Positions 1 through 46,820 of a DNA stretch of 64,000 bases are shown here, piece after piece. A model generated the notes under the pieces. That model was given only the letters and a program-made list of their open reading frames with translations. It did no database searches and had not been told where the DNA came from. Each line of letters opens with the position of its first letter. Position 1 is the first letter of the stretch. Source of the stretch: Mesotaenium endlicherianum (taxonomy: Eukaryota); assembly GCA_009602735.1 (NCBI GenBank), contig WELA01003365.1, positions 268,954-332,953 on the forward strand, written 5' to 3'. The translations under genes were made by a program, and so were the position numbers.

Positions 1-1394
1 GATCCCCATGGACGCGGACAGCTTCAAGGACTCAACACCCCACAACAGGTTCAAGGCCATGTACAATGAGGTGGAGAGGAGGAGCTGGGAATTCTTGGCC
101 AGAGAAACCAGTCAGCTGGACTTTGCAGGGCACTGGTACCCTTGTACTCTCAAAAAGACAGAAGCTGCCTTCTTCCAAAAGCCCACTGATTGGCGGTAGA
201 TGACCATCAACATGAGGGACCAGCAGAATGACAGGGCGACGGATGAGGATTTCCTGACAGACCTAAACGGGAACATAGTATTGCCACCTCACATTGCGGC
301 TTGGGACCCAAGATTGGATGGAGTCAGAGACTGCATGAGCCAAGAGATGCAGGGGGACAGAAGCAGGGCCCGAGAGTCATTCTCCAAAGGGAAGCACGCT
401 TATGCCAAATGGGGCAAGTAAGCAGGGGGAAAAGGACCTCTATGCGGTCCGGACTCAGCAGCCCCCACCAGCACCCAAAAGGGGAAGGTCAGTAGGATAT
501 TCTTTTTCTCGGGAAGAGCTGGAGCAGCGGATAGAGGAGACCCCAGAAGTCTCAGAGGAACCCGGGGACGGCGAGGAGGCGGAGTCGGAGGAAGACGAGG
601 AGGACGGCGAGGAGGAGTCACTAGCCCCGCCGTGATCCTGACACCTGCCACATCCCCTGTAAGGGAGAAGACGGGGTGGGCCCCGCCGCAACTCGCTCAA
701 GAGGAGGATATCACTTGGCTGGGAACTGCCAGAGGACAGAGCCCATCTCCAGGCAAGAAGACCTAGTCGGACAGGGCAGACAGGAGGGCTGCTCGGGAGA
801 TAGCCAGAGGCCTGCCAGCATCTCCCTCGCAGAGAGGGCATGTACCCTTGGCTCATGTCATGCAACATCCTTCCGGGATGCCGGTATACGTACCTGTCAG
901 TTTGAGGGCTGCCCAGGAGAAGGCTGCCTCCCATCAGTTGCAGACTGTGCAGGAGGAAACATCCCGGTTACTGCGTTCTCCGCCGGGTCCTTACACGGAA
1001 CCTCCTTCTTTGACAGGCTTCAGAAGACCCCAAGACAGGAGGAGGTTTGGCTCCCCTGAGTATAGAGCCTCAGGGACATCTCCCTCCTAAGGGCAGCAGG
1101 CTGGGGATAAGAGGGACAGCACGCTGTTATTAGTGATAGTGTTGTTGAGGCGACAACATGATAAGTTGGAGGGATTGTAATGAATCAGTATATTGGTTGA
1201 TATAATATTCATTTAAATTATATAGTTAATTAAATTCAACCTGCTGAACTCTAGTTAACAATCAGTCTGCTGGACTTTACACTTCATGTCAGTTTAATGA
1301 CTGGGCCGGAAGTAGCAGGCTGAGGTCACCTTAAGTCAGCTTGCTGACACATTCTTTGACAGCTAGCTGACTTCCGTACTCGGTAGCAGCGAAC
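1..1394 (+). mobile_element. 3' part of a second copy of the same element (accessory ORF remnant, PPT 1163-1175, LTR fragment 1176-1394)
   Basis: Reverse complement of about 1799-3191; stop at 197-199 and frameshift near 410. Confidence 0.92.
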
Positions 1395-2017
1395 GGCAAA
1401 GGACAACACACTAGCAGTGAATAATACTCGTCAGTCAAATGCGGGTAAACTAGCATCAATAGTGCAAATCAGTAAACTCATACATAAGCAAGGTTAGAAG
1501 ACAGTGCGTATCAATGGCTTCTCGCCTTGGATTCAGATCTCTCTCAGTAAGCTGTACAAGAGAGTTGGCCTCGTTTCCGAATGCCGAACTCGAGAGCAAT
1601 GCCTAGCATATGTACATGGAATGAGTTTACTGTTCAACGGTCAGTGCGATGGCACCGCCTACCCGGGAGTTAACCACGTTGGTAGGACCTCGGTTAACCA
1701 CATCCACCGCCATCTCCCATCATCCCGAATAGCCATCCATCATAGGGATGTCATCTGGCCATTCATCTAGCGGGTGGTACTTAGATGCATACAAGGCAGT
1801 TCGCTGCTACCGAGTACGGAAGTGAGCTGGCTGTCAAAGAATGTGTCAGCAAGCTAACTTAAGGTGACCTCAGCCTGCTACTTCCGGCCGAGTCATTAAA
1901 CTGATATTGAATATAAAGTCCAGCAGACTGATCATTAACTAGAGTTCAGCAGGCTGAACTTATTTAACTATATTATTTATATGAATATTATGTCAACCAA
2001 TATACTGATTCATCACA
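1392..2017 (-). repeat. 3' LTR, lacking about 95 bp at its distal end
   Basis: Homologous to 9983-10610. Confidence 0.9.
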
Positions 2018-2030
2018 ATCCCTCCAACTT
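2018..2030 (-). promoter_or_regulatory. Polypurine tract
   Basis: AAGTTGGAGGGAT directly before the LTR start TGTGATGAATC. Confidence 0.8.
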
Positions 2031-2102
2031 ATCATGTTGTCGCCTCGACAACACTCACACTAATAATAGCGTACTGTCCCTCTCGTCCCCAGCCTACTGC
2101 CC

Positions 2103-3769
2103 TTAGGAGGGAGATGTCCCTGAGGCCCTATACTCAGGGGAGCCAGACCTCCACCTGTCTTGGGGTCTTCTGAAGCGTGTCAGAGAAGGAGGTTCCGTGT
2201 AAGGACCCGGCGGAGAACGCAGTAACTGGGCTGTTTCCTCCTGCACAGTCTGCAACTGAAGGGAGGCAGCCTTCTCCTGGGCAGCCCTCAAACTGACAGG
2301 TACGTATACCGGCATCCCGGAAGGATGTTGCATGACATGAGCCAAGGGTACATGCCCTCTCTGCGAGGGAGATGCTGGCAGGCCTCTGGCTATCTCCCGA
2401 GCAGCCCTCCTGTCTGCCCTGTCCGACTAGGTCTCCTTGCCTGGAGATGGGCTGTGTCCTCTGGCAGTTCCCAACGAAGTGATATCCTCCTCTTGAGCGA
2501 GTTGCTGCAGGGCCAACCCCGTCTTCTCCCTTACAGGGGATGTGGCAGGTGTCAGGATCACGGCGGGGCTAGTGACTCCTCCTCGCCTTCCTCCTCGTCT
2601 TCCTCTGACTCCTCCTCCTCGCCGTCCCCGGGTTCCTATGAGACTTCTGGGGTCTCTTCTGTCAGCTGCTCCAGCTCTTCCCGAGAAAAAGAATATCCTA
2701 CTGACCTGCCCCTTTTGGGTGCTGGTGGGGGCTGCTGAGTCTGGACCGCATAGAGGTCCTTTTCCCCCTGCTTACTTGCCCATTTGGCATAAGCGTGCTT
2801 CCCTTTGGAGAATGACTCTCGGGCCCTGCTTCTGTCCCCCTGCATCTCTTGGCTCATGCAGTCTCTGACTCCATCCAATCTTGGGTCCCAAGCCGCAATG
2901 TGAGGGGGCAATACTATGTTCCCCTTTAGGTCTGTCAGGAAATCCTCATCCGTCGCCCTGTCATTCTGCTGGTCCCTCATGTTGATGGTCATCCACCGCC
3001 AATCAGTGGGCTTTTGGAAGAAGGCAGCGTCTGTCTTTTTGAGAGTACAAGGGTACCAGTGCCCTGCAAAGTCCAGCTGACTGGTTTCTCTGGCCAAGAA
3101 TTCCCAGCTCCTCCTCTCCACCTCATTGTACATGGCCTTGAACCTGTTGTGGGGTGTTGAGTCCTTGAAGCTGTCCGCGTCCATGGGGATCATCCTGATG
3201 ACCCTATCTGCCCCCCAGATACCAGGAATCGAGACAGCTCCTGCTTCGTTCACCTGGGCCATTGCCTTGGCCTCTCCGATGGTATATCCTACCATCCTGG
3301 CGTAATCGTGGTAGAGGAGGAGCCCTGTGCCGACCTCTATATACTTGTCAAAGTTTTCGGATGTCTCCCCTTCCCTCTGGAGGATTTCCTTCTGCGACTC
3401 ACTGCGACTTCTCTGGGCATACTTGAAGGCCTCCTCCAGTAGATCAAAGCCCTTGCCCAGCACCGTGTAGCGGTAGCTGCTGATTCTCCTCTGTTCTTCT
3501 TCTTCAACCTGCTGCTTCCGCTTCTCCTCAGCTTGCCTTTCCTTTTCTGCTTTCTTGGCCTCCTCTGCAGCTTTTCGGTCCAATTCTTCCTGCCTCAGTC
3601 TGGCCTGTTCCTCCTCCTCCTTCTTCTTCTGTGCCTCCCGCTGTTGTTGGAGTCGTTGTGATTCCCGAGCGGAGATGGAAGATGATTCGATGTCTCCACG
3701 GACTTGCAAGTATTCTGCATGTGCCTCTTCCGCCCTTCTCTTCCTCTTGAGTTCCGACTTTTGAGTCAT
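2103..3769 (-). pseudogene. Accessory ORF of the retrotransposon (coiled-coil N-terminus, unknown central domain, disordered tail)
   Basis: 377 aa open (2636-3769), same sense as pol, between pol and the PPT; mirrored in the second copy at 1-1090. Confidence 0.75.
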
Positions 3770-4601
3770 CCTGTAGTGATTTGAGTTATTATATATTAGT
3801 TTGCATATATTTTAATGTTTTCAAATATATTTGGAGTAGTATTGTGTGGAGTCAAGTGTGAATAGGTACTCTAGTAACTTTGTTCATGTCCTTTGAACCT
3901 TCCAAGGCATTTTCGAAGTTAGAGGAAAGACCTAGAAGAACTCCATGTGGCAAAAGTCAAATGTGCCATTTTTAGGTCAAAAGGACATGTGTACATTATT
4001 CTAGAAAGAGGTGGCAAGTTTTGGGATGTGTTGGGTGCCAACACATCAACATACACCTTCCTAGAAATTACTTATGTAGCAAGTATATAAACAAGAGCTA
4101 GAACATTGAAAGACATTCGAGAATCACTCTTGTACTTGCCAAAATCCAGAAATATATTAACTTTCAAGAAGCCATCTCTCTTTCAAGAAGCTACCACTTG
4201 TGTTCAAAGATCCTTGTCTTGAATAGATAAAGTATTCTGTTTTACTAAGTACTTGATCTATCTGTTTCACTACACATCCTGCTGAATCATAAACACAATG
4301 CAGTTAGTGAAGTCATGTTATTTTGCCGCTACTGAGTGCCCTTGATGAAGAGGAACGCGATCGGGAGAGTTCCTAGTGTGGAATACCTGGTGTGAGTGAA
4401 TATAAGGGAAATTTGAGTTACAGAGCAAGTGAGTGTGAGCGCAGGTTGAGTGGGTAATATGGTGATCAAAGAATACCACTCTCTCCAACTTAATTTTAAA
4501 GGTGGGCTGCCTATCACAACTATCACTAACTGTCACATCCCTCTCCAACTTATATGGAGACAGGACAGCCTGTCACCTTCCCGTGTCAATCGAAATGACT
4601 G

Positions 4602-7600
4602 TTAGGGAGGTGCCACAGCCGCTCGAAGGTGGAACCGTTTCAACGCCCCTTTGGCATTGGTCAGCTGATCTTTAAATTCCCAAGTGCCCCCAGAGGCATC
4701 GTAACCCTTCCATCGGATGAGGTACTTCATGACATATTTAGACGATCGACGGACCGAGCGAGCGTCTAAAATCTCCTCGACCTCATATTCCTCAAGATCG
4801 CCGTCCCGGACAGCGGGGACCGGTCCCGGTTGGACAAGTAACCGACCTGTGAACAGTGAATCACCTTTGATGTATGGTTCCAGGAAGGAGACATTAAAGA
4901 CCGGGTGACCCTTGTAGTCAGCTGACATGTTCAGTTTGTAAGCATTCTGACCGACACGACGTACCACCGAATATGGACCAACCCTGACTGGGCCAAGCTT
5001 ATTCTTGACCACACCAGGGAGGTACACGTGCTGAGAATGCAGTTTGACTAAATCGCCCTTAGAAAATGTCAGCTCCCGACGGTGTTGATTAGCGTATTTT
5101 TGTTGGTTTTCTTGGGCTTTGTGCAGGTTTTGTTGGACTTCTGACAGGGTGTCAGCAAACTCCTGAGTTAACTGGAGGGAGACCGGGTTGTCAATCCCTT
5201 CAGGGTCAGTTAAAGACTCCCCCAGTACATCTGAAGGAGACTTAGGGACTCTACCGAGGCTGAGTTCAAAAGGAGTCTTGCCCGTTGACGTGTGCACCGC
5301 ACTGTTGACCGCAAACTGAATTTGAGGCAACATGTCATCCCAATTATCTTGTTTTTGGTTAATGTATGCTCTCAGCACCTCCTACAGAAATCGGTTAGTT
5401 CTTTCAGTCTGCCCATCAGTCTGAGGGTGGTTTGCTGTGCTCAGAAGCTGTTTGACTCCCATTAACCCCATTAAAGCTCTCCAGAACTTAGAGGTGAATT
5501 TCGAGTCTCTGTCTGAGATGATAGTTGAAGGGAGCCCATGTTGGCATACTACATGGTTGTAGAACTGTCTCGCTGTTTCGAGTGCAGTCACTTTGACAGT
5601 TGTGGGGATAAAAATGACCATTTTTGTCAGTTTATCCACGACTACCAGTATTGAATCATGCCCATTGGCAGTTCTTGGTAGTGAAACCACCCAGTCCATG
5701 GATATAGTTTCCCAGCGTCCAGCTGGGATGGGCAGCGGTTGCAAGAGACCTCCGGGTGGTGTGTGCCGAGACTTATTTCTCTGACACTGGTCACAGGATT
5801 TGACATATTTCAAGACCTTCCGGGGTAACCCCTCCCTATGATAATGTTTTGCCAGTTTGCCAACGGTTTTGGCCTGCCCCAAATGTCCACCCAGGAGACT
5901 GTCATGCGCTTGGCTCAGTAAGAGAGATTTTATTTCCAAGTTATTAGGAATGACCAGCTTCAGCCTGCCTGAAGTGGTTTCAGTCACCCAGACCCCTCCC
6001 TTAAGCTTATACCCGAGTGCAGTAGCACGACACACACCAGTAGTGGGGCTGGGCTCAAATGTTGGGTCAGAAAGGTAGGCTTTCCTAAGTTGTTCTAGGA
6101 AGGACTTTTTCACCTTTAGTGAAGTGAGTGCACACAGGACTTTATCTACAGCATGCTGACTAAAGTTCCGTTCTTGCAAGTCAGGTCTTCTAGAGAGTGC
6201 ATCAGCAGGATTCAACTTCCCTGGTTTGTAGACGATCTGGACTTGGAATTGCTCCAGCATCTGGCTCCAGCGGTTCTCCCTGCTCGAAAGCTTGAACTTC
6301 TTCTGAAAGTGAGTCAGAGCTAGATGATCTGTAATCATCTTAAAAGCTTTGCAATGTAAGTATGCTCTCCACTGTTTGAGTACATGAATTAATCTCCGCT
6401 GGATTAGATTTCATAGACTCATACAACACAGGATGCCACTCCTGCCGTACCTTACCATCCTTTGTGGTTTTGTCAGCAGGCTGCAACAAAATAGCACCCA
6501 TGGCAAAGTCAGAGGCATCAGTAACCACCTGCACCGGTTTGCTGGGGTCATACACGGCTAGCACTGGGGTAGAACAAAGGGCATCTTTAAGGGTCTGGAA
6601 GGCAGCCTGCTGCTCTTCCCCCCACACATACCCGATGTCTTTCTTAGTAAGGTCAGTCAGTTTACTGGCCTTTGTGGAACAATTCTCAATAAATCTCCCG
6701 AAGTAGTTAGCCAACCCGAGGAAGGATCTAACTTCAGAGACAGGCTGTGGTACTGGCCAGTCCCTTATGGTTTGGACTTTCTTAGGATCCACGCTGATGC
6801 CCTTTTTACTGACAATGTGGCCTAAGAATTCAATACTGTCTTTAAAGAAATCACACTTGCTCATTTTAGCATATAAGTGATTCGTTCTCAGAGTGTCCAG
6901 GACTGTCTTTAAGTGTTCAGCGTGCTGAGCTTCATCTTTAGAGAAAATTAAAATATCATCCAGGAAAACTTGCACAAACTTATCCAAATAAGGTCTGAAA
7001 ATGTCATTCATAGCACCCATGAAGGTAGCAGGAGCATTAGTCAGTCCAAATGGCATCACGTTGAACTCATAGTGTCCATAACGTGTGCGGAAGGCAGTCT
7101 TGTGTTCATCCCCCTCAGCAATTCTGATTTGATGATAACCACTCTTGAGATCTATCTTACTGAACACCTTAGCGCCAGACAGGGTATCAAGCAAGTCCTC
7201 GATTCTGGGTAAAGCATACTTGTTCTTTACTGTAATTCTGTTCAGGGCTCTGTAATCCACACACATCCGCATACTGCCATCCTTTTTCTTAACAAATAGG
7301 ATAGGTGCGCCGTACGGTGATTTACTGGGAGAAATGTAACCATTTTCCTCCAGCTCTGCAATCTGTGTTTTCAACTCCTCACTCTCCAAATAAGACAAGC
7401 CATACGTGCGTTGCCAGGGTGGCTGGCTACCAGGTAATAAATCAATCCTATGATCTACTTCCCGCTTAGGGGGTAGTCCTGGAGGCATATTAAACACATC
7501 CGTGTACTGAGCAACAATGTTTGCAGCAGTAGGGTGTTCCGGAGGGTGTACCTTTTTCTCAACCACTTCTTCAGGTTGAGGAGGTACCTCTCTTAGCAGC

Positions 7601-8376
7601 AGACAGAACATTCTGTCTTCCCTCGGGTTCCAGCTTTTGACGAACTCCATTGCATTCAGCAACTTGCATCCTTATGGAAACCTCTTCTTTTCCTTTATTT
7701 GCCATCCACACAGGACAAGAGGAAGAGCACTGGTGGGTGACAAGTCAGTCTGCCCATCATTGGCTCCTCTCACTTTAACTGTACCTCTGCTCCAACACAC
7801 TTCAGCTTGATGTCTCTTAAGCCAGGACCTGCCTAGCACGAGATCATAAAAGCCAGTGTTGAGTACCTCAAATGTAAGCGTTTCAGTTAGAACTGCAATG
7901 CCAGAACTTAAGTGGACCTCAATAGGCTTGGTTATAACTCCTCCCGAGATACTTGAGGCATCTCCAAGGAATAATTTTCTATTCCCTTGGGTGACAGTAG
8001 GCAGCCTTAGCCGCTTAACTAAGTCCTCGTGGATAAAAGTATGTGACGTCCCTCCGTCAAGAAATGCCCTCACCTTCCTACCTGCAATCATGCAATGCAG
8101 TAGGATAGGGGGGACTGTCTTTTCCTGACTTTCGCATTGTTCTCCTGACGTAGCAAAGAAATGTTGGACATCAGGTGGAACAAGAGCATCCAGAGTGTGC
8201 ACTCTCTGGACGTCTATATTGCTGATGGTCTCCTTTATCTGTTTGTCAGGCATGCATAGTGAATCCAGTTCAGCAGGACCCATAATACCTCCTACGAGGG
8301 CAGCTAGTGACGACTCACTATCTCTAGCATCCTCACAGTGAGTAGACTCGATTACTGACTGTTGCTGTCTTTTAAA
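4602..8376 (-). pseudogene. pol: pol: protease, reverse transcriptase, RNase H, integrase, chromodomain
   Basis: FLDGGTSHTFI (PR); [12 protein letters not shown] and FLDDILIFS (RT); [12 protein letters not shown] (RH); H2C2 plus ISDRD/HPQTDGQTER (IN); YEVEEIL..YLIRWKGY..TWE (chromodomain). In-frame stops at 7672 and 5382; deletion/frameshift in RH near 6340. Confidence 0.95.
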
Positions 8377-9854
8377 GGCTGGTCTTTTCTCTCGACCTTC
8401 GGAAGGTGCTTGACTGGACACTGTTCTCTGTAGTGGCCTTTCTGCTGACAATGGTAGCAAGTNGACAATGGTAGCAAGTGGATTTTGCTGAGGCTGGTCT
8501 CGGCTTAGTCCTACCACCACCTCTTCCATAGCCGCCTCGAGAGAAACCACCTCTACCTCTAGACTGNNNNNNNNNNNNNNNNNNNNNNNNNNNNNNNNNN
8601 NNNNNNNATCCTCAGCCTCGTCTCCTTCCACTGCATTGTAGGAACCGTGGGGCTTTTTGATAACCTTAGACACCAAAGCATTACTCTGGCGCTTGTGATT
8701 GAATTGCTGTTGATCCCNTTGATCCCAGGCATCCGCATCCTGGATGAAGTCAGCCAGTTTCTCATACTTTTTCTCAGCAAAATGACCAGAGACCTCCGAT
8801 TTCAAGCCATACTTGAAGTATGCTATCCTATATCGTTCTGGCAAATCGGGCTGCTTCATCATGTTCTCTTGGAACTTTTGAGCAAACTCAGCAACTGAAG
8901 TGGTCTGCTTCAGTGTCAGGGAGATCATCGCATAGATAGCTTTCTCCTGCTGGTTGATGACATCAAACTTCTCATGCAACTTCTCGACAAACTCTACCCA
9001 CGTAGGGTCACCGAGTTGCCGAGCCTTACGCTCTTCCTTCCAGTAAAGCCACCAGTCTGCGGCACTGTTCAGTAGCGCACCGGTGTGCCTGACCTTCTCG
9101 TAATGTTGCAGTGCTGGGTAGTTCTCCAGCCACTGCTCAACATCCGCGAGAAACTTGATCAGGTAATATTTTCTGTTTCCCTCAGGATCATAGTCCTGGG
9201 GAGGTTTCGGCTTGGGCTTACTAGGCCCTCGGCCACCACCACTAGTGGTTTGAGACCCCAGTTGGTCTCTGTCCCGTAGTAGGGACATTATGATTCTTTT
9301 GTCCTCCTGTTGGGACTGATACATGGTCGCCATTTGCGACTGCATCTGAACGAACAATGCTCCCAAGTCTACACTCTGGGGTGGTAGATTAGCAAATGCA
9401 GCAGCAGCATTGACCTCTACTCAGTGAGTAGTGTTATCAACAGTCCCTCTCGCTCCTGCAGCAGCAATTCTGCCGCATTCAGCCGGTCACGTATTTGATT
9501 TAGGGGTACATTGAGTTGTACAGCAGGAGGTGGGTTAAGAACATTGGCCCTTGATGCCATAATTTCCTCGACAGTGCGCTCGTCAGCTGGCTGTCTTTCC
9601 CTCCTTTCTGTATCTTCAGCGGCCTTCGCTAATTGTTCAGCTTCTAGCCTGGCTCTCTCCTCCTCAGCTTGCTGTGCTGCGACTGCGGCAATAGCAGCTG
9701 CCTCATCTGCAGCCTCTCTAGCTGCAGTATCTGCTACTGCTTCAGAATAGGTACGATTTCCCGCTACATGGCTTTCCGCCTGGTTTTCGACATTCTCGTT
9801 ATCCTGGTTCTCCATGTCTCGGGAGTTGCTAGTTTGAGACCTTGTCCTTACCAT
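8352..9854 (-). pseudogene. gag: gag with CCHC zinc knuckle
   Basis: MVRTRS start; retrotransposon-gag-like core; CYHCQQKGHYREQC followed by TAA at 8352-8354; disrupted near 9420 and by assembly gaps. Confidence 0.85.
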
Positions 9855-9874: not shown

Positions 9875-9887
9875 GGCTCCGATACCA
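9875..9887 (-). promoter_or_regulatory. Primer binding site (tRNA-iMet type)
   Basis: TGGTATCGGAGCC, 1 nt inside the LTR-terminal CA. Confidence 0.9.
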
Positions 9888-9888
9888 C

Positions 9889-10610
9889 TGAAATGAATCG
9901 ACTTACCAAATAGGCGATTAACAATTAATAAAGATCTTTATAGCAGCAAGTAATCTTTATGGTATTTTCCGTTAACTGGTTTAACGGCAAAGGACAACAC
10001 ACTAGCAGTGAATAATACTCGTAAGTCAAATGCGAGTAAACTAGCATCAATAATGCAAATCAGTAAACTCATACATAAGCAAGCTTAGAAGACAGTGCGT
10101 ATCAATGGCTTCTCGCCTTGGATTCAGATCACTCTCAGTAAGCTTGTACAAGAGAATTGGCCTCGTTTCCGAATGCCGAACTCAACAGCATTGCCTAGCA
10201 TATGTACATGGAATGAGTTCACTGTTCAACGGTCAGTGCGATGGCACCGCCTACCCGGGAGTTAACCACGTTGGTAGGACCTCGGTTAACCAAATCCACC
10301 GCCATCTCCCATCATCCCGAATCGCCATCCATCATAGGGATATCATCTGGCCATTCATCTAGCATACCACACTTAGATGCATATCGAGGCAGTTCGCTGC
10401 TACCGAGTACGGAAGTCAGCTGGCTGTCAAAGAATGTGTCAGCAAGCTGACTTAAGGTGACCTCAGCCTGCTACTTCCGGCCGAGTCATTAAACTGATAT
10501 TAAATATAAAGTCCAGCAGACTGATTATTAACTAGAGTTCAGCAGGCTGAACTTATTTAACTATATTATTTAAATGAATATTACATCAACCAATGTACTG
10601 ATTCATTACA
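9889..10610 (-). repeat. 5' LTR (722 bp)
   Basis: Minus strand begins TGTAATGAAT and ends ATTCATTTCA; 9983-10610 aligns to 1392-2017 at roughly 95% identity by eye. Confidence 0.92.
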
Positions 10611-11736
10611 TCACTTGAGTATCTATTCACACTTGAATCCACACAAAACTACTATAAAAATATTCAAAAGCATTCAAATATAGAAACAAATTAATATATT
10701 CTAATTTCTCTATCACTACAGTTTTGCCTTGGCAAATATTGATCCTACCATAAAAACCGAGCCCCCGGGACTGGTGCAAGCCACGCCTTGTGCCTTACTA
10801 TTCTAGATGGCACACTTCCTGTATTGGCGATGAAGAAGTATGAGCAAGAAGTTGGGAATGGTTTGACTGTGTCAAAACCCCTCAAAAAAAGAGAGCTTGA
10901 AAGCAAAAAATAGCTTTAAGCTTGAAGCTTTAGCTGAAAGGGAGGGAATTAAGGTAAGTTTGAAGGCGATCAACTTCAAAAGAGGAACTCTCATGAGAGA
11001 AGTCATGAAAGTGAGCTTGTGGTGTGCAAATACTCAAGCGACGCACTGAGGGAACTTGGCAATTTCCAGCCATGTCAAGGAAGGAGAAGAGTCAACAGGA
11101 CTTGACCAGTCACTGACACACTTGCAAAATCAATGGTCAACGATCAGGTTGATGACACACGCGCAGACCACCGACAAAAGGGACATCGACATGGATTAGG
11201 CACGACAGGGGCCCAATCGCTGCCCATCGCCCTTGAGCAAGTGGTAGCAAGGCCTCGCTATGGCCTGGGTTTTCAAGAACCAGCGATAGCGAGCAAAAGC
11301 TCCCGTGGTAAACCCGGGAATGTCGTTAAAAAATCCATAAAGAGTCGATTCTGCCCAGTTTCATGCAATAGTCCAGTCGAACATCTCGAGACGTGACTTT
11401 AATGGCCGTATGAAGTATTACACCTAACTATTTCCGAGGTCTACATGCCGCACAGGTATAGCTGCAATCGGCTGCAACGGTCTTCCCAGGTCTACCCGCC
11501 AAAGAAAAAAAGATGGCCATCGGGGTTCATGGGCCATTCGAGGGTGCAGGTTATTGACGCTTGAGTTTCGAAACTGTTTCCTCCTGCCGATACCCTTCCG
11601 CAGAGAAATTGGGTCTAGCGGAAGGTACACGGACCAGCAATTAGTTGCTATAGAAAAGGCGTAGTCACGACGCTCTTTTTAAATCCCTCGCTGATTGATG
11701 AATAATATCGGCAAGCAGTGACATATATTTTTCACG

Positions 11737-13707
11737 ATGGGGGGTGTAAGCTGTTGGCTTCTTGCAGCATTTCTTGTTGTAGGTCTCTTGTCGATACCTG
11801 AGCAATGTGCTGGATTTTATCTTCCTGGTATGTATCCGAAGGCTCATCCGGTAGGAGAAGCCGTCACCGTGAAAGTGAATTCCCTGACATCAGTGGCCAC
11901 GGGCCTTCCTTTCAGCTATTACAGCTTACCCTTCTGTGTCCCTGCGGAAGGCATCAAGAAAACGGATGAAAACTTTGGTGAAGTTCTCATAGGCGATTTG
12001 ATAGAAAATTCTGCCTACAAGTTTAAGACTATGCAGAGGGAAGACGGTGTGAAGGTTTGTGATTCGAAAGTTCTTACAGAGCAGGATGTCGAAAATTTTA
12101 AGGAGAAGATCGATGACTTGTATCATGTGAACATGCTGTTGGATAATCTGCCCGTGACAACAATGTTAATTGAGGAAAATCCAGGTGATATAGTGACCGG
12201 ATTCCCAATCGGTTTCAGCAAGGATGGTCAGTACTATGTCTACAACCACCTTGTGTTCAAGGTGCTGATTCATGAGTACAAAGAGACAGCGCAGCTCACA
12301 GGCATGTCAGTAGGAGATTCCGCCATAGATATTATGCCAGAAGGGGATGTGTCTGCAAAGCACAACAATACAGGCTTCTTAGTTGTAGGTTTTGAGGTCG
12401 GTTATTGCAGCATCTTGAGAGCAGCAGATGGCAAGAAAGCGCCTTACTCTTATCTGGACAAGGTGGACTGCTTGAAGGGCCCTCATCAGCCTTTGAAGGC
12501 TGGATCACAGATCGTATTCTCGTTCGATGTCAGATGGGAACCCAGTGACATTGCCTGGGCTAGCAGGTGGGACGCGTATCTGAAAATGAGGGGTGATCAG
12601 GTGCACTGGTTCTCCATCTTGAACAGCTTGATGGTCATCTCGTTCCTGGCTGGAATGGTCTTCGTCATTCTGCTGCGTTCAGTACACAGAGATTTGGCGC
12701 GTGTGGAGCAGCTTGACAAAGAGGAGGTTCAGCAGATGGCAGATGAGAGTGGCTGGAAGCTTGTGGTTGGAGATGTTTTCAGGGCACCCTCAAGGCCTGG
12801 GCTGCTTTGCCTTGTGGTTGGAAGTGGAGTTCAGATCCTCTGCATGGCAGCAGTGACCATCTTCTTTGCCGCTCTTGGATTCATGTCTCCAGCATCTCGG
12901 GGCGCTCTCCTTGTAGGGATGGTGCTCCTCTACTTGCTCCTTGGGATCACGTCAGGATATGTGGCAGCTCGCCTGTGGGTGATGATGACCGGCTTGCCTG
13001 AGGGGTCTGTCCTCATGGCTCTCAAAGTAGCATGCTTTTTCCCCGGCATTGCTTCCACGGTTCTTCTCATTTTGAACGCAATCCTTTGGAGCAGTGGGAG
13101 CACAGGGGCAGTACCTTTCTCCGTTTTCTTCAAGATCTTTGCCCTCTGGTTCGTCATTTCGGTGCCGCTTACTATCACCGGCACACACTATGGCATGAAG
13201 GCTGAGAGGTTCCCTTACCCTGTCCGTACCAACCAGATACCTCGCCAGATTCCTGAGCAGAGGTATCCTTCTTGGTTGCTCATTCTAGGAGGTGGTATAC
13301 TGCCATTTGGAACACTCTACATCGAGCTCTTCTTCATCATGTCCAGCATCTGGATGCAGCGCGTCTACTACGGCTTCGGTTTCCTCTTTGTAGTCCTCAT
13401 CCTTCTGATCTTGGTCTGCGCGGAGGTTGCTGTTGTCTTCACATACCTTCAGCTTACCATGGAGGACTACAGGTGGTGGTGGCGCTCATTCCTTGCCTCA
13501 GGCTCAGTTGCTCTCTACGCGTTCTTGTACTCTATCAACTACTTGTTTGTTGACCTTCACCGCATGAGTGGCACGTTGTCAGAGATTCTCTTTATGGGCT
13601 ATAGTTTGCTGATGGTGTTCGCCATCTTCTTGGCCACAGGCAGCATAGGATTCTTAGCTTCTGGTTACTTTGTCTACTATCTCTTCTCATCTGTAAAGCT
13701 AGACTGA
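11737..13707 (+). CDS. Transmembrane 9 superfamily / EMP70 protein (TMN11/12-like), intronless, 656 aa
   Basis: Signal peptide plus FYLPG, WASRWDAYL, HWFSILNS, ESGWKLVVGDVFR, RTNQIPRQIP, hydrophobic TM segments, C-terminal KLD motif. Confidence 0.97.
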   Translation: MGGVSCWLLAAFLVVGLLSIPEQCAGFYLPGMYPKAHPVGEAVTVKVNSLTSVATGLPFSYYSLPFCVPAEGIKKTDENFGEVLIGDLIENSAYKFKTMQREDGVKVCDSKVLTEQDVENFKEKIDDLYHVNMLLDNLPVTTMLIEENPGDIVTGFPIGFSKDGQYYVYNHLVFKVLIHEYKETAQLTGMSVGDSAIDIMPEGDVSAKHNNTGFLVVGFEVGYCSILRAADGKKAPYSYLDKVDCLKGPHQPLKAGSQIVFSFDVRWEPSDIAWASRWDAYLKMRGDQVHWFSILNSLMVISFLAGMVFVILLRSVHRDLARVEQLDKEEVQQMADESGWKLVVGDVFRAPSRPGLLCLVVGSGVQILCMAAVTIFFAALGFMSPASRGALLVGMVLLYLLLGITSGYVAARLWVMMTGLPEGSVLMALKVACFFPGIASTVLLILNAILWSSGSTGAVPFSVFFKIFALWFVISVPLTITGTHYGMKAERFPYPVRTNQIPRQIPEQRYPSWLLILGGGILPFGTLYIELFFIMSSIWMQRVYYGFGFLFVVLILLILVCAEVAVVFTYLQLTMEDYRWWWRSFLASGSVALYAFLYSINYLFVDLHRMSGTLSEILFMGYSLLMVFAIFLATGSIGFLASGYFVYYLFSSVKLD

Positions 13708-29856: not shown

Positions 29857-38610
<8,754 letters not shown>

Positions 38611-40415
38611 ACAATAGTATATCGAGCCAGATGAGCTTGACGAGTCACACTTGTACAAATCTAGAGTAAATCTTTGGTCCTATATATGTATATGGGTGAG
38701 CACATCTCTGCATGCAGCTACCCACCACAAGTATACGTGGCAGACTTTCCAACGGGGAGTATCCTCAGGGCATGTACACTCACTGTGTCATGGGCACAAC
38801 TGTTGAAAGCATATGACGAGTATTTAGTTTGAGAAGATTCATTTTGATCCTCGGGTGCGGCTGTGTGCTGACTTACGCTCATTTCCAGCTGCTAAGAGTG
38901 TGATGGCAAGGTGCACCTGCACCATGAATGACAGATGGACTCGGCCTGCAAGGCTATTCACATATATTGATGTACTCATTTTTGTCTTCTTTGAACCTTT
39001 GGCAAACAAGATCTTGCCCTTCTGCTGGCCAACTTCTCTCATCTGAGTCAATTAAATGATTGTGCATGATTATGTTGATAATTCCATCAAGCTGCATTCT
39101 GGTTAGTTGGTTCACTTTAATGCTATCACTAAGACCTAGGTTTTTTTGTGGTGTGGGTCTGTTACTTGGGTGTAAACCTCCTTGGCCGTGGCCTGCATAG
39201 TTATGGATGGATTCAGTAAGCTGTACCCTTTAGACAAAAGCGGATATTTGTTAACTCAGTGCTTTGAGTCCAGGCTGGGTCTAAAGATAAAACCACACTG
39301 ACATCCTAAAGGTAAGACAAATACTAATGTTCTCGAGATTTTAAAGAATCTCATCTTGCTCAATATACAAAAACAATGAAGCCATGGTAATGGCTGGAAA
39401 GACCAGCCCTACCAAGGGTACTAAAATAGAGGGAAGATAAGAAGCAACCATGATGTGAGTTCCTTAGTAATAGGCCCTGTCACAAAGGCAGAGCGTGAAT
39501 AAAAGAAAAGATCTGAAGCAAAGGAAAAGGTCTTGTTTATAGGAGGGTTGAGACCTTGTTTGGGCTAAACAATCAGTCACACAGCGAGCTTGAGTGGGTA
39601 TCCTTGGGATTGTAACACAAGTCAGCCTGAGGAAAAATAGCTCCGGAAGATTCGAAATCCTAATATTCTCTATTTCTAGACCTAGAAGAAGCAGCCTAGC
39701 ATGTTTTTGAGTCGTTAAAACGAACAGATCAAAAATAGACCTACGCAAATTTCAGCATCACGGTCTAACCTCCCAATTCCGAATAAGATTAACAGGCTGG
39801 GACGACTCATAGCATCTCTTTTCTTGAATAGAATGATTGACGCAGAGATGGGCTTAAATTTATGCTTGTTGACACTCGCATGCAATTCAATTGTATCTTG
39901 CAAAAAGGATTGATACGCTAAAGGCACCGGGTGCCGAATTTGTTGAATTTTTAGATTTTCACAGAATTCTCGATTGTTTTCATTCTGAGGTAATGTTTCT
40001 GAGGTTTTGTGAGCGGTGATAAGAGCTGGCAATTCCCTGGAGGCAGCTAATGATGCATAATTTTTTTGATTGCATAAAAATGCGTACATAATTGTGAAAA
40101 GTACGCTTAAGGCCATTGTCTCATAAAATTTATATAACCAGTCAAAGTTTCTCTTATTCATATCAATAGAATATCTTTTATTGTATGGCACTGATCTAAG
40201 TGGACAAGTTGAAGTGTTATTGAAACTTGTCCACTTAGATCGCATTAAATGATCGTGACTTAATTGTAGCTCAAGATGGTCTATTCGTCTACTTTTTTAA
40301 AAGAAGATAGGCTTGAAACGGGGGCGATGAAAGGAAGCTGCCCGGAAAAAGTGCGAGGAGCACTGCTATAAAGTTCAAACAACTCTCCGAGCACACCCTT
40401 GAGGATAGCACGGGN

Positions 40416-40959
40416 CGGGCCTTGGAAATTTGCACCTTCGGTTAAAACGAACCCAAATTTGATTTTTGCCATCTATTTCGAATTTTAATCTATCGCCCCA
40501 TTCTGAAATCACCGTCACTGTATGCACAGGCTTGCGTTGCGAATTTTTTTCTACAGTAAAATAGACCCCAGGATTGCGCAAAATTTGACTTACTACAACC
40601 CTAGAAACGCCATTGATAATAAATGTACCTATTGGGCTCATTAAAGGCAAGCTACCTAGAAACACTTTTTGCTTTTGCACATTTCGGTTTGCGTCATTTC
40701 TAAGCTCAGCTGGCACATACAGCCCAGCTGTATAACTCGAGAGGCTCCTTAAAGCTTCTCTCTCGTCCACATGAGGAATTCCCAACTTATATTCTTCACC
40801 ACACAGCCATAGCTTTAATTCATTTTCGGAATCCTGGACTATCGAAAAGAATCGCAGCTCTTGAATAATGCCATACTCTAAAAAATCCTGAAATCCTTTT
40901 AATTGCATAGCCTTAAAATCTGGTAATGCAAATACGCCTACGTCGCTGAGTCTGGCCAT
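40416..40959 (-). pseudogene. rpoB: Plastid RNA polymerase beta subunit, 5' fragment
   Basis: LPDFKAMQLKGFQDFL, YTAGLYVPAEL, LPLMSPIGTFIINGVSRVVVSQILRNPGVYF; ends at the n join. Confidence 0.92.
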
Positions 40960-41232
40960 ATATTCCTCATGTCTTTAGGCCCAACATATCTCCCGGGCCT
41001 AAATTGTTAATAGATCTAATCTAGTGTTTGGAATTGCTATATTCCTCTTAATATTTCAATGCGATATGTTAAAAAAGCCCCCCGAATAGTCAAACCTGAG
41101 ACGCATCTTTGATAGTTGCAAGACTATGCCGATATCAAGCTTGACTTGGCCTAGAAGAAAGGATATTATTTCTATAATAAGATAGCCGTATATTGTTTAA
41201 AGCCAAAAGCTTTTAGATCAAGGCCTAACTTA

Positions 41233-41303
41233 GGCGACATGGCCAAGTGGTAAGGCAAAGGATTGCAAATCCTTTATCCCCAGTTCGATCCTGGGTGTCG
41301 CCT
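41233..41303 (+). tRNA. trnC: Plastid tRNA-Cys(GCA)
   Basis: GGCGACA/TGTCGCC acceptor stem, GCA anticodon, GTTCGATC T-loop; divergent from rpoB. Confidence 0.95.
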
Positions 41304-41579
41304 GACTGCCAAAAAGCACAATAAAAAGGCTTGGGGCTGCCGTACTCTGCTAGCTACAAGTATAGAGTGTGATGCTCTAAATACATAGCCTGACACAGTC
41401 TCTACACTTGAACCTCTCATTAGCTGACAGCCCCATTTGATTGTAAAAGATCTTAGCCTTCGGCGCAAGGCCCTTTCTCAAACAAAGGTCCTCTTGGCAT
41501 CTACTAGTAAGCCTGGTATGATGAATTATGTGCACAGAAACATTACATCACACCTGAAGTCAACACCACATCATTATCT

Positions 41580-41669
41580 ATGGATATAGTCAGCATTGGT
41601 TGGGCATCACTCATGGTCATATTTACCTTTTCTCTTTCTCTAGTTGTTTGGGGCAGAAGTGGACTCTAA
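41580..41669 (+). CDS. petN: Cytochrome b6f subunit VIII
   Basis: [29 protein letters not shown]. Confidence 0.96.
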
Positions 41670-41821
41670 GTGTTTTGCTATGTTTTGTACAATATGCACA
41701 TTTAGAGCAAGCTTACTTCTCAAACATCAGAAAAGACACAGCCATTTTCTAAAAACAGATACTTTGCTCTTTACACTTGGTTATCCTGAAGACCATTGAC
41801 TTTGAAAAACAAAGAGCAGGT

Positions 41822-41859
41822 TTAATGGCCCTGCTTTAAGCAAAAAACAGGGCCATTAA
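41822..41859. terminator. Plastid 3' stem-loop after petN
   Basis: TTAATGGCCCTG...CAGGGCCATTAA, 12-bp inverted repeat. Confidence 0.6.
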
Positions 41860-42253
41860 TATCCATAATCTATGGGAATAGTATAGCTAATCTGTCCCCA
41901 TTCCAGTTCAAAGACCTTGNTAAGCAGATGTCCCCATTCCAGTTCAAAGACCTTGTCACTAAGCAGATCTCTTGGTCTATCTATGAGCGGTTGACCAAAT
42001 ACAGGTGGATTTGCAAGCCGTCTGTAACTCATGAGAGAGAGAGAGAGAGAGAAAAGTTGGCCAAGAGTTCAATAAGGTCTTAAGTGGCGGGAGAGACCTC
42101 GGCCTACTAGTTTTGTAGGAAACCTGCTGCTAGTAGAACTTTATGAATAAAGTTCTTGTCTTTTCTTCCTTTTTCTTGTCTTTATTGGAAGTAAAACTTG
42201 ACATCCGCTTTTTCCATAAGTATTTTATAAACAAGCTAGATAATGTTCATGTG

Positions 42254-42325
42254 GCCCTTTTAACTCAGCGGTAGAGTAACGCCATGGTAAGGCGTAAGTC
42301 ATCGGTTCAAGTCCGATAAAGGGCT
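42254..42325 (+). tRNA. trnT: Plastid tRNA-Thr(GGU)
   Basis: GCCCTTT/AAAGGGC stem, GGT anticodon, GTTCAAGTCC; TTGACA upstream at about 42198. Confidence 0.95.
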
Positions 42326-42911
42326 TTTACTATTTCCTGAAAAATGCAGATGATCACTTCATGTTTTTTCAATGTTCATTTCCAATTTTCAGTCTGGGAT
42401 TTTCAAAAGATAGAATGAATCTGCAAGATAGATCTGAGGTTATGTCTACTTTTTTTCTGCAACTCCAACTGTATTAAACAGTTTAGAGTTGACATTTCAG
42501 GCCTGCTTGACTTCAAAGGTTAGAAAATGTGTGCTGTATTAACCACTAGATTGCTAATTTGTTTTGCTCCTTAGCTCTAGTTATACTAGAGAAGAAACGG
42601 AGATCTAACCGTGTGCTCAAATTGAGCCAGGTTTTTGTCGAGAAGTGGGTTTTCCAAGACCAAAAAACTTGGAGACTAGGAAGAAAAGAAAAGCCAACTG
42701 TGTTTCTATCCAACTTCAATATTGCCCAGCCCTTGGCTAGTTTTTGGCTTTGTTAGAAAGCACCGCTAGCCTGCGTTATTCATTTACTTAAATACAAGTG
42801 AGCAGCCTGTGGATGTGATCAGGGCTGCTCACTCGTGTTTAAGTGAATGAATGAATGAATGAATGAATGAATGAATAGTGCTTAAAGCTGATTTAAATAG
42901 TGGGAGAGTAA

Positions 42912-45018
<2,107 letters not shown>

Positions 45019-46820
45019 TGAAAAAAATGTGTATTTTTCTCCCCTCGACATCCCCCCGACTATCCTCACTTCTCAAGCATGGTATATCAAGAATTGTCAA
45101 ACCTGTACTCCACTACGGCAGTTATGCAAGAATGAAAAAGAGGATTTTGTGGGACAAGGCCAGGCCCCCATGCATGCCAAATAAGTAAAACGCGATTATT
45201 GAATCTAGACCAGACCTTGAATTTCAATGTACGTTGCATACTTGTGCATACTCAAATGATAAAGTGATATTCATGGGGACCCTATGCCCATGTCCATTTG
45301 CGCCACCCTCAATTTGAGGTGCAGAGGTGCACTAGCGGGTGGATGTACTTGCAGAAGGCCGGCGTGGACGTGTATGTGAAATATTAAAGTGTACACTGTT
45401 GTAGTGCTTGGGAGCGAGAAGAACTTCAAGTCTGACAGGTGCACGCTGCACAATTCGGCCAATCTTCACGTTGAGTGGGACCTAGAAAGGTGACATGCCT
45501 ACCACAGCCGAGTGAATTGCAACGGAGGGCAAGATGCCATGCAACACAATATATATCTAAGGTTGTGAGTTCTATCCTTCAGCAGAGTTATGCAAAGTGT
45601 AATCACAATATGTTTACATTCAATGCACAGAGATTGCAATACCTCAAGATGATACATTTTAAGAAGTGTAGGTTCCTCTCATATGTCCTATCCTGCCAAA
45701 GGCTATACATTCGTCTCAAAACTTGTTTTCATACTAATGTTCCTTGCGCAGTCACTGAAGTCAACAAGACTACTCATGCTGCTACAGATACAAACATTAC
45801 ATGCACCTTTGTATGGCCGACTGTGCTGAAATAAAATTTCGGACAATAAGACTTCAAACAGAAGATAAAGTAAAGCTTTTCTACCTTCCTACAGTGCAGG
45901 GGTTGAAACTCGTCCGGACACAAACTTCCACCTTGTACTTTTTAACATCGAATGTTGCCAGTTTAGTTTAATGACTCTCTTTTTTGCTCACTCTTATGAG
46001 TGATATGCCGGCCTTCAGAAAAACCTTCAGCTCAGTTCTTTCAAGACAAAAATGATGTAGGCTCTAGGTAATGCAGACTAGTAAAACAATCATGTTGACA
46101 CTTTGGGACTATGGTGTAGACCGTAGGCAATGGTGCTGCCTGCAAGGTACATGTCATATCATGTACCTTGCAGGCAGCACCCTCTTCACATGCTTCATAT
46201 ACAACTAGCTCCTCACACAATTTGGTCGATAAATGCTGTCTCAAGCACAAGTGCCAATATGCTTACAGGAACATGAGGGGGAAGAAGTTTTACATAGCAC
46301 TGAAATGCCAGTGTGATACAAAAATTGGTGGTCCACTTCAGTCGAGACCAGCCTTGTAAGTTGCTAACTATACCTCTTCAAATGATACTGAAAAGCTATG
46401 ACGCCAAGGCTTCAATCACCTTCAACGCAACAGACTACGAAAAATAAACCTCTCCACTTGATGCCCACCCAGGATGTAATTTCTGGAGCTATCAAAAGGA
46501 CGACCGCAGGTGTCAATCGGATTTTGTACAACTTAACAAGGCAATTTTGAAGCCTGCCAAAGGTTGCCTGGTTGAAGACCGCTCATTTCCTACTTCTGTA
46601 CACTCAGGAACTTGTTTTTGCATATACCTGGCTCCGGAAGTCAAGCCAATGACTGTTCCATCAATAAGAACTATGTGCCTCCAGACCTTGTACAATGACC
46701 AGTCTCGAACCAAAATTGTATGATGAATCCCGGTGAATATACCCCAGTTCCCCACTTCAACACAACGAGGGCTGACGGTTTTCCTGCATGTAGCCTCCAA
46801 CACAGCTTCACTTGCAACTC

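Follow-up and report, generated by a model that had tools for sequence, protein, structure and literature searches.

Additional open reading frames in LTR retrotransposons

Open reading frames (ORFs) oriented in sense and situated between pol and the 3' long terminal repeat (LTR) of LTR retrotransposons form a recognised class of additional ORF (aORF), designated aORF-3S; they are often orphans and are considered envelope-like (env-like) if they contain transmembrane (TM) segments (PMC7264820). This study concerns such an ORF, and the decayed Ty3/gypsy element carrying it, in a stretch of 64,000 nucleotides of Mesotaenium endlicherianum DNA (assembly GCA_009602735.1, contig WELA01003365.1, positions 268,954 to 332,953; hereafter the window). 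A sense open frame between the pol stop codon and the polypurine tract (PPT), by which the class is recognised, is present on the minus strand at 3769-2103.

The env-like ORFs of Athila and Bagy2 share with this aORF their position, orientation, occurrence in many copies and lack of similarity to known proteins; they differ in having TM domains and, for Bagy2, a spliced mRNA, whereas the aORF described here has no TM segment, no spliced RNA was seen for it and its carrier is a chromovirus and not an Athila/Tat element (PMC7264820). Within chromoviruses, conserved 5' aORFs are reported for Tekay, where they occur in 500 of the 523 members of sunflower Tekay group 2 (PMC11728184). Compared by description only, the Tekay aORFs resemble the present one in having a chromovirus carrier and an orphan product of about 400 amino acids (aa) with a nuclear localisation signal, a few confident helices and long disordered Pro-rich parts; they lie upstream of gag, whereas the aORF described here lies downstream of pol (PMC11728184). 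Third, non-envelope ORFs behind pol, acquired as modules, are found in LTR retrotransposons of bdelloid rotifers; these ORF3s encode enzymatic domains (GDSL esterase, DEDDy exonuclease), whereas the aORF described here matches no family (PMC5408684). Fungal chromoviruses are depicted with an 'add. ORF' of unknown function (PMC2864245). Accessory genes between pol and the 3' LTR are also found as antisense aORFs in the Boty/brtn fungal chromoviruses, Grande (gene23), RIRE2 and Retand; some of these products are nuclear with a coiled coil, and the carrier Boty is itself a chromovirus, but they lie on the opposite strand, have their own promoter and are unrelated in sequence (PMC7264820).

An earlier note on this DNA, made from the sequence alone, had described the ORF as a novel non-env accessory gene on the premise that chromoviruses lack extra ORFs. 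The premise is contradicted by Tekay (PMC11728184), by the fungal 'add. ORF' (PMC2864245) and by Boty (PMC7264820). What stands is a sense, non-env ORF of a chromodomain-bearing Ty3/gypsy element; its exceptional novelty was overstated, since extra ORFs of chromoviruses are known. Our literature search found no paper on a sense, TM-less 3' aORF in a chromovirus with a chromodomain like that of the algal/non-seed-plant type. The ORF is a real, lineage-specific orphan aORF-3S, a familiar kind of add-on of which this one is unnamed, and its function is one that we infer. Overall, we read the locus as a decayed copy of a lineage-specific sense aORF of this chromovirus family, which would encode a soluble, coiled-coil, intracellular and probably nuclear replication helper and not an envelope (probability about 0.55).

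The open reading frame and its three breaks

Analysis of the left 10.6 kb of the window revealed an LTR retrotransposon of almost full length on the minus strand (copy B), together with the plus-strand 3' end of a second copy (copy A). Behind the chromodomain-encoding pol of copy B, and in sense to gag-pol, an ORF of 377 codons runs on the minus strand from an ATG at 3769-3767 to a stop at 2636-2638, which agrees with the sense ORF that the earlier note had placed at the env position. The parts of the aORF and the breaks that interrupt it are as follows.

2639..3769, minus strand: first 377 codons of the aORF, with a basic N-terminus (KRKRR), a helix over residues 3-123 and a Trp-rich middle
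2636..2638, minus strand: break 1, a stop private to copy B; sense codon in copy A
2574..2576, minus strand: break 2, one base absent in both window copies; frameshift within an acidic stretch
2427..2429, minus strand: break 3, a stop common to copy A (764-766) and copy B; sense in nearly all of the depth of four further runs
2103..2573, minus strand: tail of the aORF, 156 codons, Pro/Ser/Arg-rich, open except for break 3; terminal stop at 2103-2105

Contigs from six DNA-like runs were compared with this region: X5 and X8, and then X1, X6, X9 and X18 (four organism labels) on 2018-3766. At break 1 the depth was 100% sense in each of the four runs X1, X6, X9 and X18, and at break 3 a sense codon made up 99.8% of X1 depth and all of the depth of X6, X9 and X18. 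At break 2, one additional base at 2575 was present in all of the depth of five of the six runs (X5, X8, X6, X9 and X18); in X1 about 47% of the depth carried it, split over the neighbouring placements 2574/2575. Since nearly all contigs of the six runs are without the three breaks, a single frame of 555 codons leads from 3769 to 2103-2105 and stops 69 nt before the PPT (2018-2033). An ancestral gene of about 555 codons is the best reading of these sequences, which also support the view that the two breaks common to copies A and B are derived. The density of private lesions in the ORF (one per 1.67 kb) is comparable to that in gag-pol of the same copy (at least four per 5.3 kb).

These results bear out the ancestor of about 555 codons, ending about 70 bp before the PPT, that the earlier note had proposed. 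Its list of lesions was likewise recovered, namely a stop at 197-199 and an extra base at 411 in copy A, the stop at 2636-2638 in copy B, and the break near 2575 and the stop at 764-766/2427-2429 in both.

Coding signal and changes among copies

Analysis of base composition by codon position in the main part of the aORF revealed a GC content of 0.56/0.41/0.64 at the first, second and third positions. The chance of an open frame of 377 codons at about 53% GC is estimated at roughly 1e-7 to 1e-8 per frame. We give next to no credence to the view that the ORF is not a gene and has stayed open by chance in low-complexity, purine-rich DNA. The first 100 codons or so are indeed rich in GAA, GAG and AAG, and neither homologues nor RNA were found, but the charged helix is followed by 270 codons of normal complexity that are still open, the GC pattern by codon position is typical of coding sequence, and the stops in the window are absent from other copies.

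In the variant analysis 40 of the 69 variant rows were listed, 34 of them in the ORF. These 34 changes comprised 14 synonymous ones and 20 that were not (two of the latter being the stop sites), against an expected synonymous share of 0.24-0.28; taken in the other two frames, these changes gave 7/27 and 9/25 (synonymous/not). The binomial p value for the synonymous excess was 0.017 and the Fisher p value 0.055. Changes among copies lean synonymous, and the excess is modest. Between copies A and B, a hand count put 7 of the 13 main-frame changes and 2 of the 15 tail changes at third positions, a comparison of low power in which the differences are mostly post-insertion.

The tail (codons 400-555) shows a GC content of 0.596 at all three codon positions, and its other frames are open for 144-170 codons. 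As the tail is without GC periodicity, its coding status is weaker than that of the main part. The control frames had 2 and 4 synonymous changes where the tail frame had 5 among the 15 listed (p 0.16). All three observations would suit a shorter gene, whose end would fall within the acidic stretch or shortly behind it, with 156 untranslated codons following that are open by chance. We consider this improbable, as the extra base of the other copies shifts translation into exactly the one frame that is open to 2103, the only stop of the tail is a sense codon in four of four runs, and no stop arises from any of the 15 changes listed for the tail.

Predicted protein and database searches

AlphaFold2 (AF2), run on the single sequence, predicted one helix over residues 3-123, with predicted local distance difference test (pLDDT) scores of 66-94 by block. 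The first 125 residues contain 31 K+R and 29 D+E, and the predicted helix fits the charged coiled coil of the earlier note. The middle (residues 126-345) has 24 aromatic residues among 220, including seven Trp counted by eye, and the motifs IPGIWGADR, FAGHWYPC and AAWDPRLDG, on which that note had based a Trp/aromatic-rich central domain, can be read in the translation. Behind the Trp-rich middle lie an acidic stretch and then a Pro/Ser-rich tail. No TM segment was detected over all 555 residues; the best 19-residue Kyte-Doolittle mean is only 0.88, hence no TM helix is present, in line with the earlier claim.

The ORF1p protein of LINE-1 consists of a coiled coil followed by a nucleic-acid-binding domain. 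The aORF product is like this non-enzymatic retroelement protein in layout only, having a long N-terminal coiled coil and a globular middle; Pfam at E up to 1 matched it neither to Transposase_22 nor to any RRM.

The position and the sense orientation of the ORF both match env-like aORFs (PMC7264820) and would be in keeping with an envelope-like product, or one for movement from cell to cell, of the kind found in Athila or Bagy2. Against this, the 555 residues include no hydrophobic segment (maximum 0.88), the N-terminus is charged and does not form a signal peptide, and no env-related Pfam family was matched. We regard this reading as very unlikely indeed.

Searches with the translated aORF gave no Pfam match at E up to 1 and none in NCBIfam or PHROGs, and the PDB sequences gave a single chance-level match (E 0.5). 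Three word-index searches, one with the whole ORF (swamped by coiled-coil words) and two with the 273-aa middle at near and then longer lengths, yielded no relative. The ESM Atlas returned nothing usable, and tblastn-confirmed scans of metagenome, viral and prokaryote contigs revealed no relative. HMMER over 1.84 billion proteins found one match, P0001 (E 2.5e-7). P0001 is a protein of 1739 aa in which a SNF2-family helicase stands behind ten near-identical repeats of 88-89 aa that belong to no named family. Kinship with P0001 was rejected because the score adds up seven weak matches to a single motif of about 35 residues and because a profile of the P0001 repeat (10 starts) did no better than with shuffles, giving the aORF domain 3.6 bits and shuffled copies up to 8.7 (2 of 1000 higher). 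No internal repeat was found in the aORF by BLASTP. On these sequence comparisons, the aORF protein is an orphan with no credible homologue in the databases searched; in particular, no clear match to a known env or host gene, which the earlier note would have held against its proposal, was found in the protein searches.

The carrier element

The gag-pol region, the 5' LTR and the adjoining primer binding site (PBS) of copy B are as follows; PR, RT, RH and INT denote protease, reverse transcriptase, ribonuclease H and integrase.

9889..10610, minus strand: 5' LTR of copy B, starting with TG and ending with CA (from direct repeats and an RNA-read branch point at 9889)
9875-9887, minus strand: PBS-like 13-mer TGGTATCGGAGCC, directly behind the 5' LTR
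4605..9854, minus strand: gag-PR-RT-RH-INT-chromodomain, decayed (from Pfam)

The Pfam families follow one another from 9420 to 4605 in the order Ty3_capsid/Retrotrans_gag, aspartyl protease, RVT_1, RT_RNaseH, Integrase_H2C2, rve, SH3_Tf2-1 and Chromo. The chromodomain (PF00385) was matched with E 5.7e-9 and a score of 36.2 bits against a cut-off of 25.1; in the last pol frame it occupies residues 199-251, at the integrase's C-terminus. Both the domain order and the integrase chromodomain identify the carrier as a chromodomain-bearing Ty3/gypsy element, that is, a chromovirus. The positions that we take to be those of the aromatic cage are occupied by Y, W and Y. With the cage positions so assumed, the chromodomain looks like the algal/non-seed-plant type (PMC6317226).

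In copy B gag-pol contains in-frame stops at 9417-9419, 7672-7674 and 5382-5384, a frame change near 6340-6410, where other copies have 32 extra letters, and a run of N near 8560-8800; the pol stop codon is 4602-4604. The PBS-like TGGTATCGGAGCC is presumably that of tRNA-Met. A frame of 145 codons at 9420-9854, Ala/Glu-rich and helix-like, begins at the first ATG behind the PBS and lies in the gag frame, with the stop at 9417-9419 between; it represents either an extra ORF on the 5' side, as in Tekay, or an N-terminal extension of gag that a lesion has cut off.

The direct repeats 9983-10610 and 1392-2017 are 94.9% identical, and many RNA reads have loose ends at 9889, to which the 5' LTR was extended. 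Since the 5' LTR reaches 9889, the 3' LTR is short of about 94 terminal nt. A perfect 8-nt inverted repeat (CCGTTAAC / GTTAACGG) was observed within the 3' part of the LTR, at 9957-9990 of the window. The 3' end of copy B and copy A are as follows.

2018..2033, minus strand: PPT adjoining the 3' LTR (from sequence reading)
1392..2017, minus strand: 3' LTR of copy B without about its last 94 nt (from repeat comparison)
1..1397, plus strand: copy A, comprising the aORF from about codon 194 to the stop at 1088-1090, the PPT and the first 222 nt of the LTR (1176-1397)

Copy A forms an inverted repeat with 1796-3191, the two being 96% identical with 55 differences in 1397. Copy A adjoins copy B tail to tail at 1392-1397 with an overlap of 6 nt and no target-site duplication, and the junction is either a rearrangement or an assembly join. 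The states at 2253, 2319 and 2424 are common to both copies and derived relative to the majority of other copies. The common breaks together with these common derived states imply that A and B descend from one copy that was already broken.

Start of the aORF and the spacer behind pol

The ORF start lies next to an insertion of another family, and the region between it and pol contains the following features.

3772..4274, minus strand: 503-bp solo LTR from another family, placed on the start codon of the aORF, TG..CA, with 8-nt inverted ends
4275..4601, minus strand: original spacer between pol and the aORF, about 327 nt, with stops in three of three frames
4543..4553, minus strand: PPT-like 11-mer directly behind the pol stop, identical to the PPT core at 2023-2033

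The segment 3772-4274 is identified as a solo LTR of another family because it has TG..CA ends, inverted termini, a 5-bp target duplication (4275-4279 and 3767-3771), its own higher depth and polyA RNA cover (depth 25-78, far above that of the host element) and a truncated relative at 10613-10721. This relative abuts the outside of the 5' LTR, and the second family is the higher-copy one. Contigs of X5 and X8 connect 3766 straight to 4275, skipping 508 positions. About 500 of the roughly 830 nt that separate pol from the ATG are thus due to this later insertion. In the uninterrupted flank, an in-frame stop occurs four codons ahead of the ATG copy at 4275-4277. As the ATG lies inside the 5-bp duplication and is preceded by this stop, the start is secure and the ATG is also present in uninterrupted copies. 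The earlier note had left out both the solo LTR at 3772-4274 and the truncation of the 3' LTR where it abuts copy A.

Besides the 11-mer, a further motif similar to the PPT core was observed near 4480-4495. The spacer behind pol was considered as the remnant of an old LTR and rejected, as only the 11-mer PPT core is common to the two and the local score of 48 compares with a shuffle maximum of 53. A contig of X5 that apparently diverged at 4543 proved to be an indel variant of the same spacer and not an ORF-less subfamily.

Copy number, transcripts and the origin of the module

The ORF was covered in all six of the DNA-like runs. X1 yielded 4898 contigs on 1.75 kb, of which 1439 were at least 99% identical, 1833 were 95-99% identical and 1626 were 90-95% identical; in view of this range the module is present there in very many diverged copies. 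Contig depth in X5 and X8 was 9-25 for the ORF and 32-170 for pol, but it is one figure per contig, sums diverged relatives and was left unused. The aORF seems to have been carried along as the family was greatly amplified in one host.

Transcripts were looked for in the polyA RNA of organism A (X23 and X24, with about 6% and 12% of the runs read). For X23 the four bins between 2827 and 3687 stood at 0 and no bin from 2253 on exceeded 0.5; X24 reached at most 4.7 in any bin. No RNA joint to a putative acceptor was found in X23 or X24, where there were almost no reads, and no RNA run is listed in the run index as carrying the ORF. A few X24 reads at 3114-3449 have a mate orientation opposite to that of the leader and pol reads; the strandedness of the library is uncalibrated and nothing was drawn from them. 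We count the sparse polyA reads neither for nor against expression.

Comparison of GC at third codon positions (GC3) gave 0.64-0.66 for the aORF, 0.48-0.53 for pol and 0.58 for a neighbouring host gene. The higher GC3 and the second PPT core behind pol suggest that the module came from another source and joined the element downstream of an older PPT. The same observations suit the main rival to our reading, according to which the ORF is passive cargo, a fragment that was transduced behind pol from a host gene or another element and has no role, its open frame being a remnant of recent capture. In favour of such cargo are the GC3 difference, the second PPT core immediately after the pol stop, which would fit a module appended downstream of the original PPT, the scarcity of polyA reads on the ORF and the documented transduction of genes by LTR elements (PMC7264820). 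However, transduced genes occur in one or few copies (PMC7264820), whereas here thousands of X1 contigs are found at 90-100% identity; moreover, the ORF is present in runs labelled as five organisms, the protein searches revealed no host-like homologue and the changes lean synonymous. On balance passive cargo is unlikely, although it deserves more weight than any other alternative.

Under the preferred reading, that of a lineage-specific aORF encoding a replication helper, the module would have been acquired once, downstream of the older PPT, from a source of higher GC3 than pol, and would have been kept by selection on transposing lineages. The long N-terminal helix may mediate oligomerisation as a coiled coil, and the KRKRR patch may direct the product to the nucleus. 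The product could serve the element's own cycle, for example in handling RNA, cDNA or the integration complex or in countering host silencing. The anti-silencing and movement roles named in the earlier note are speculative. Expression would probably proceed through a spliced or internally started subgenomic RNA. A pyrimidine-rich, acceptor-like site ending in CAG stands directly before the ATG, and GT donor-like sites are present in the leader and at the start of gag.

Several points weigh against this reading. Copies A and B go back to a copy whose frame had been broken earlier, regardless of whether transposition or local duplication moved it. The synonymous excess is borderline and comes from 34 listed sites, and most differences between old copies are expected to reflect neutral decay. 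The flat GC composition of the tail, the near absence of polyA reads over the ORF in X23 and X24 and the missing joint to the putative acceptor belong here as well. Furthermore, the AF2 models of the middle domain are uninformative (pLDDT below 50 in one, mean 37 in the other), and an orphan protein offers no independent support for function or fold from a homologue.

A bolder version of events is also conceivable, in which a chromovirus of the algal type captured a wholly new module that was selected during a large expansion in one host. The coiled-coil, Trp-rich product would then be a nuclear accessory factor of new fold, for example a silencing shield or an escort of cDNA into chromatin. 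We give this version only a small chance.

Other features of the window

The remainder of the window contains several features outside the element. An intron-less frame of 661 codons for an EMP70/TM9SF endomembrane protein (PF02990, E 1e-173) is found at 11722-13707, 1.1 kb from the element. At 32500-34500 a very GC-rich tandem duplicate of about 1.05 kb contains identical frames of 223 aa (32749-33420 and 33800-34471) next to N, and may be an assembly duplication. Very GC-rich, Ala-rich frames were also observed in the window.

A block of plastid DNA at 40300-45100 comprises an rpoB fragment, two tRNAs (41233-41303 and 42254-42325), psbD (42912-43976) and psbC (43882-45021), with an Rfam match to IsrR antisense within psbC. 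Lying inside nuclear-looking sequence, the block is either a nuclear plastid insert or the product of a chimeric assembly. The source of the window is a photosynthetic eukaryote.

Implications

Additional ORFs of LTR retrotransposons are common and almost none has a known function. Each well-delimited example that shows signs of being retained is a candidate for the first functional study. The aORF described here has clear bounds, as its start and its end are secure and its three breaks are mapped, and it plainly does not encode an envelope. With it a known class of aORF gains a further orphan, and the idea that chromoviruses lack such ORFs is corrected. Should the host be a tractable alga, the product could feasibly be localised and the ORF knocked down.

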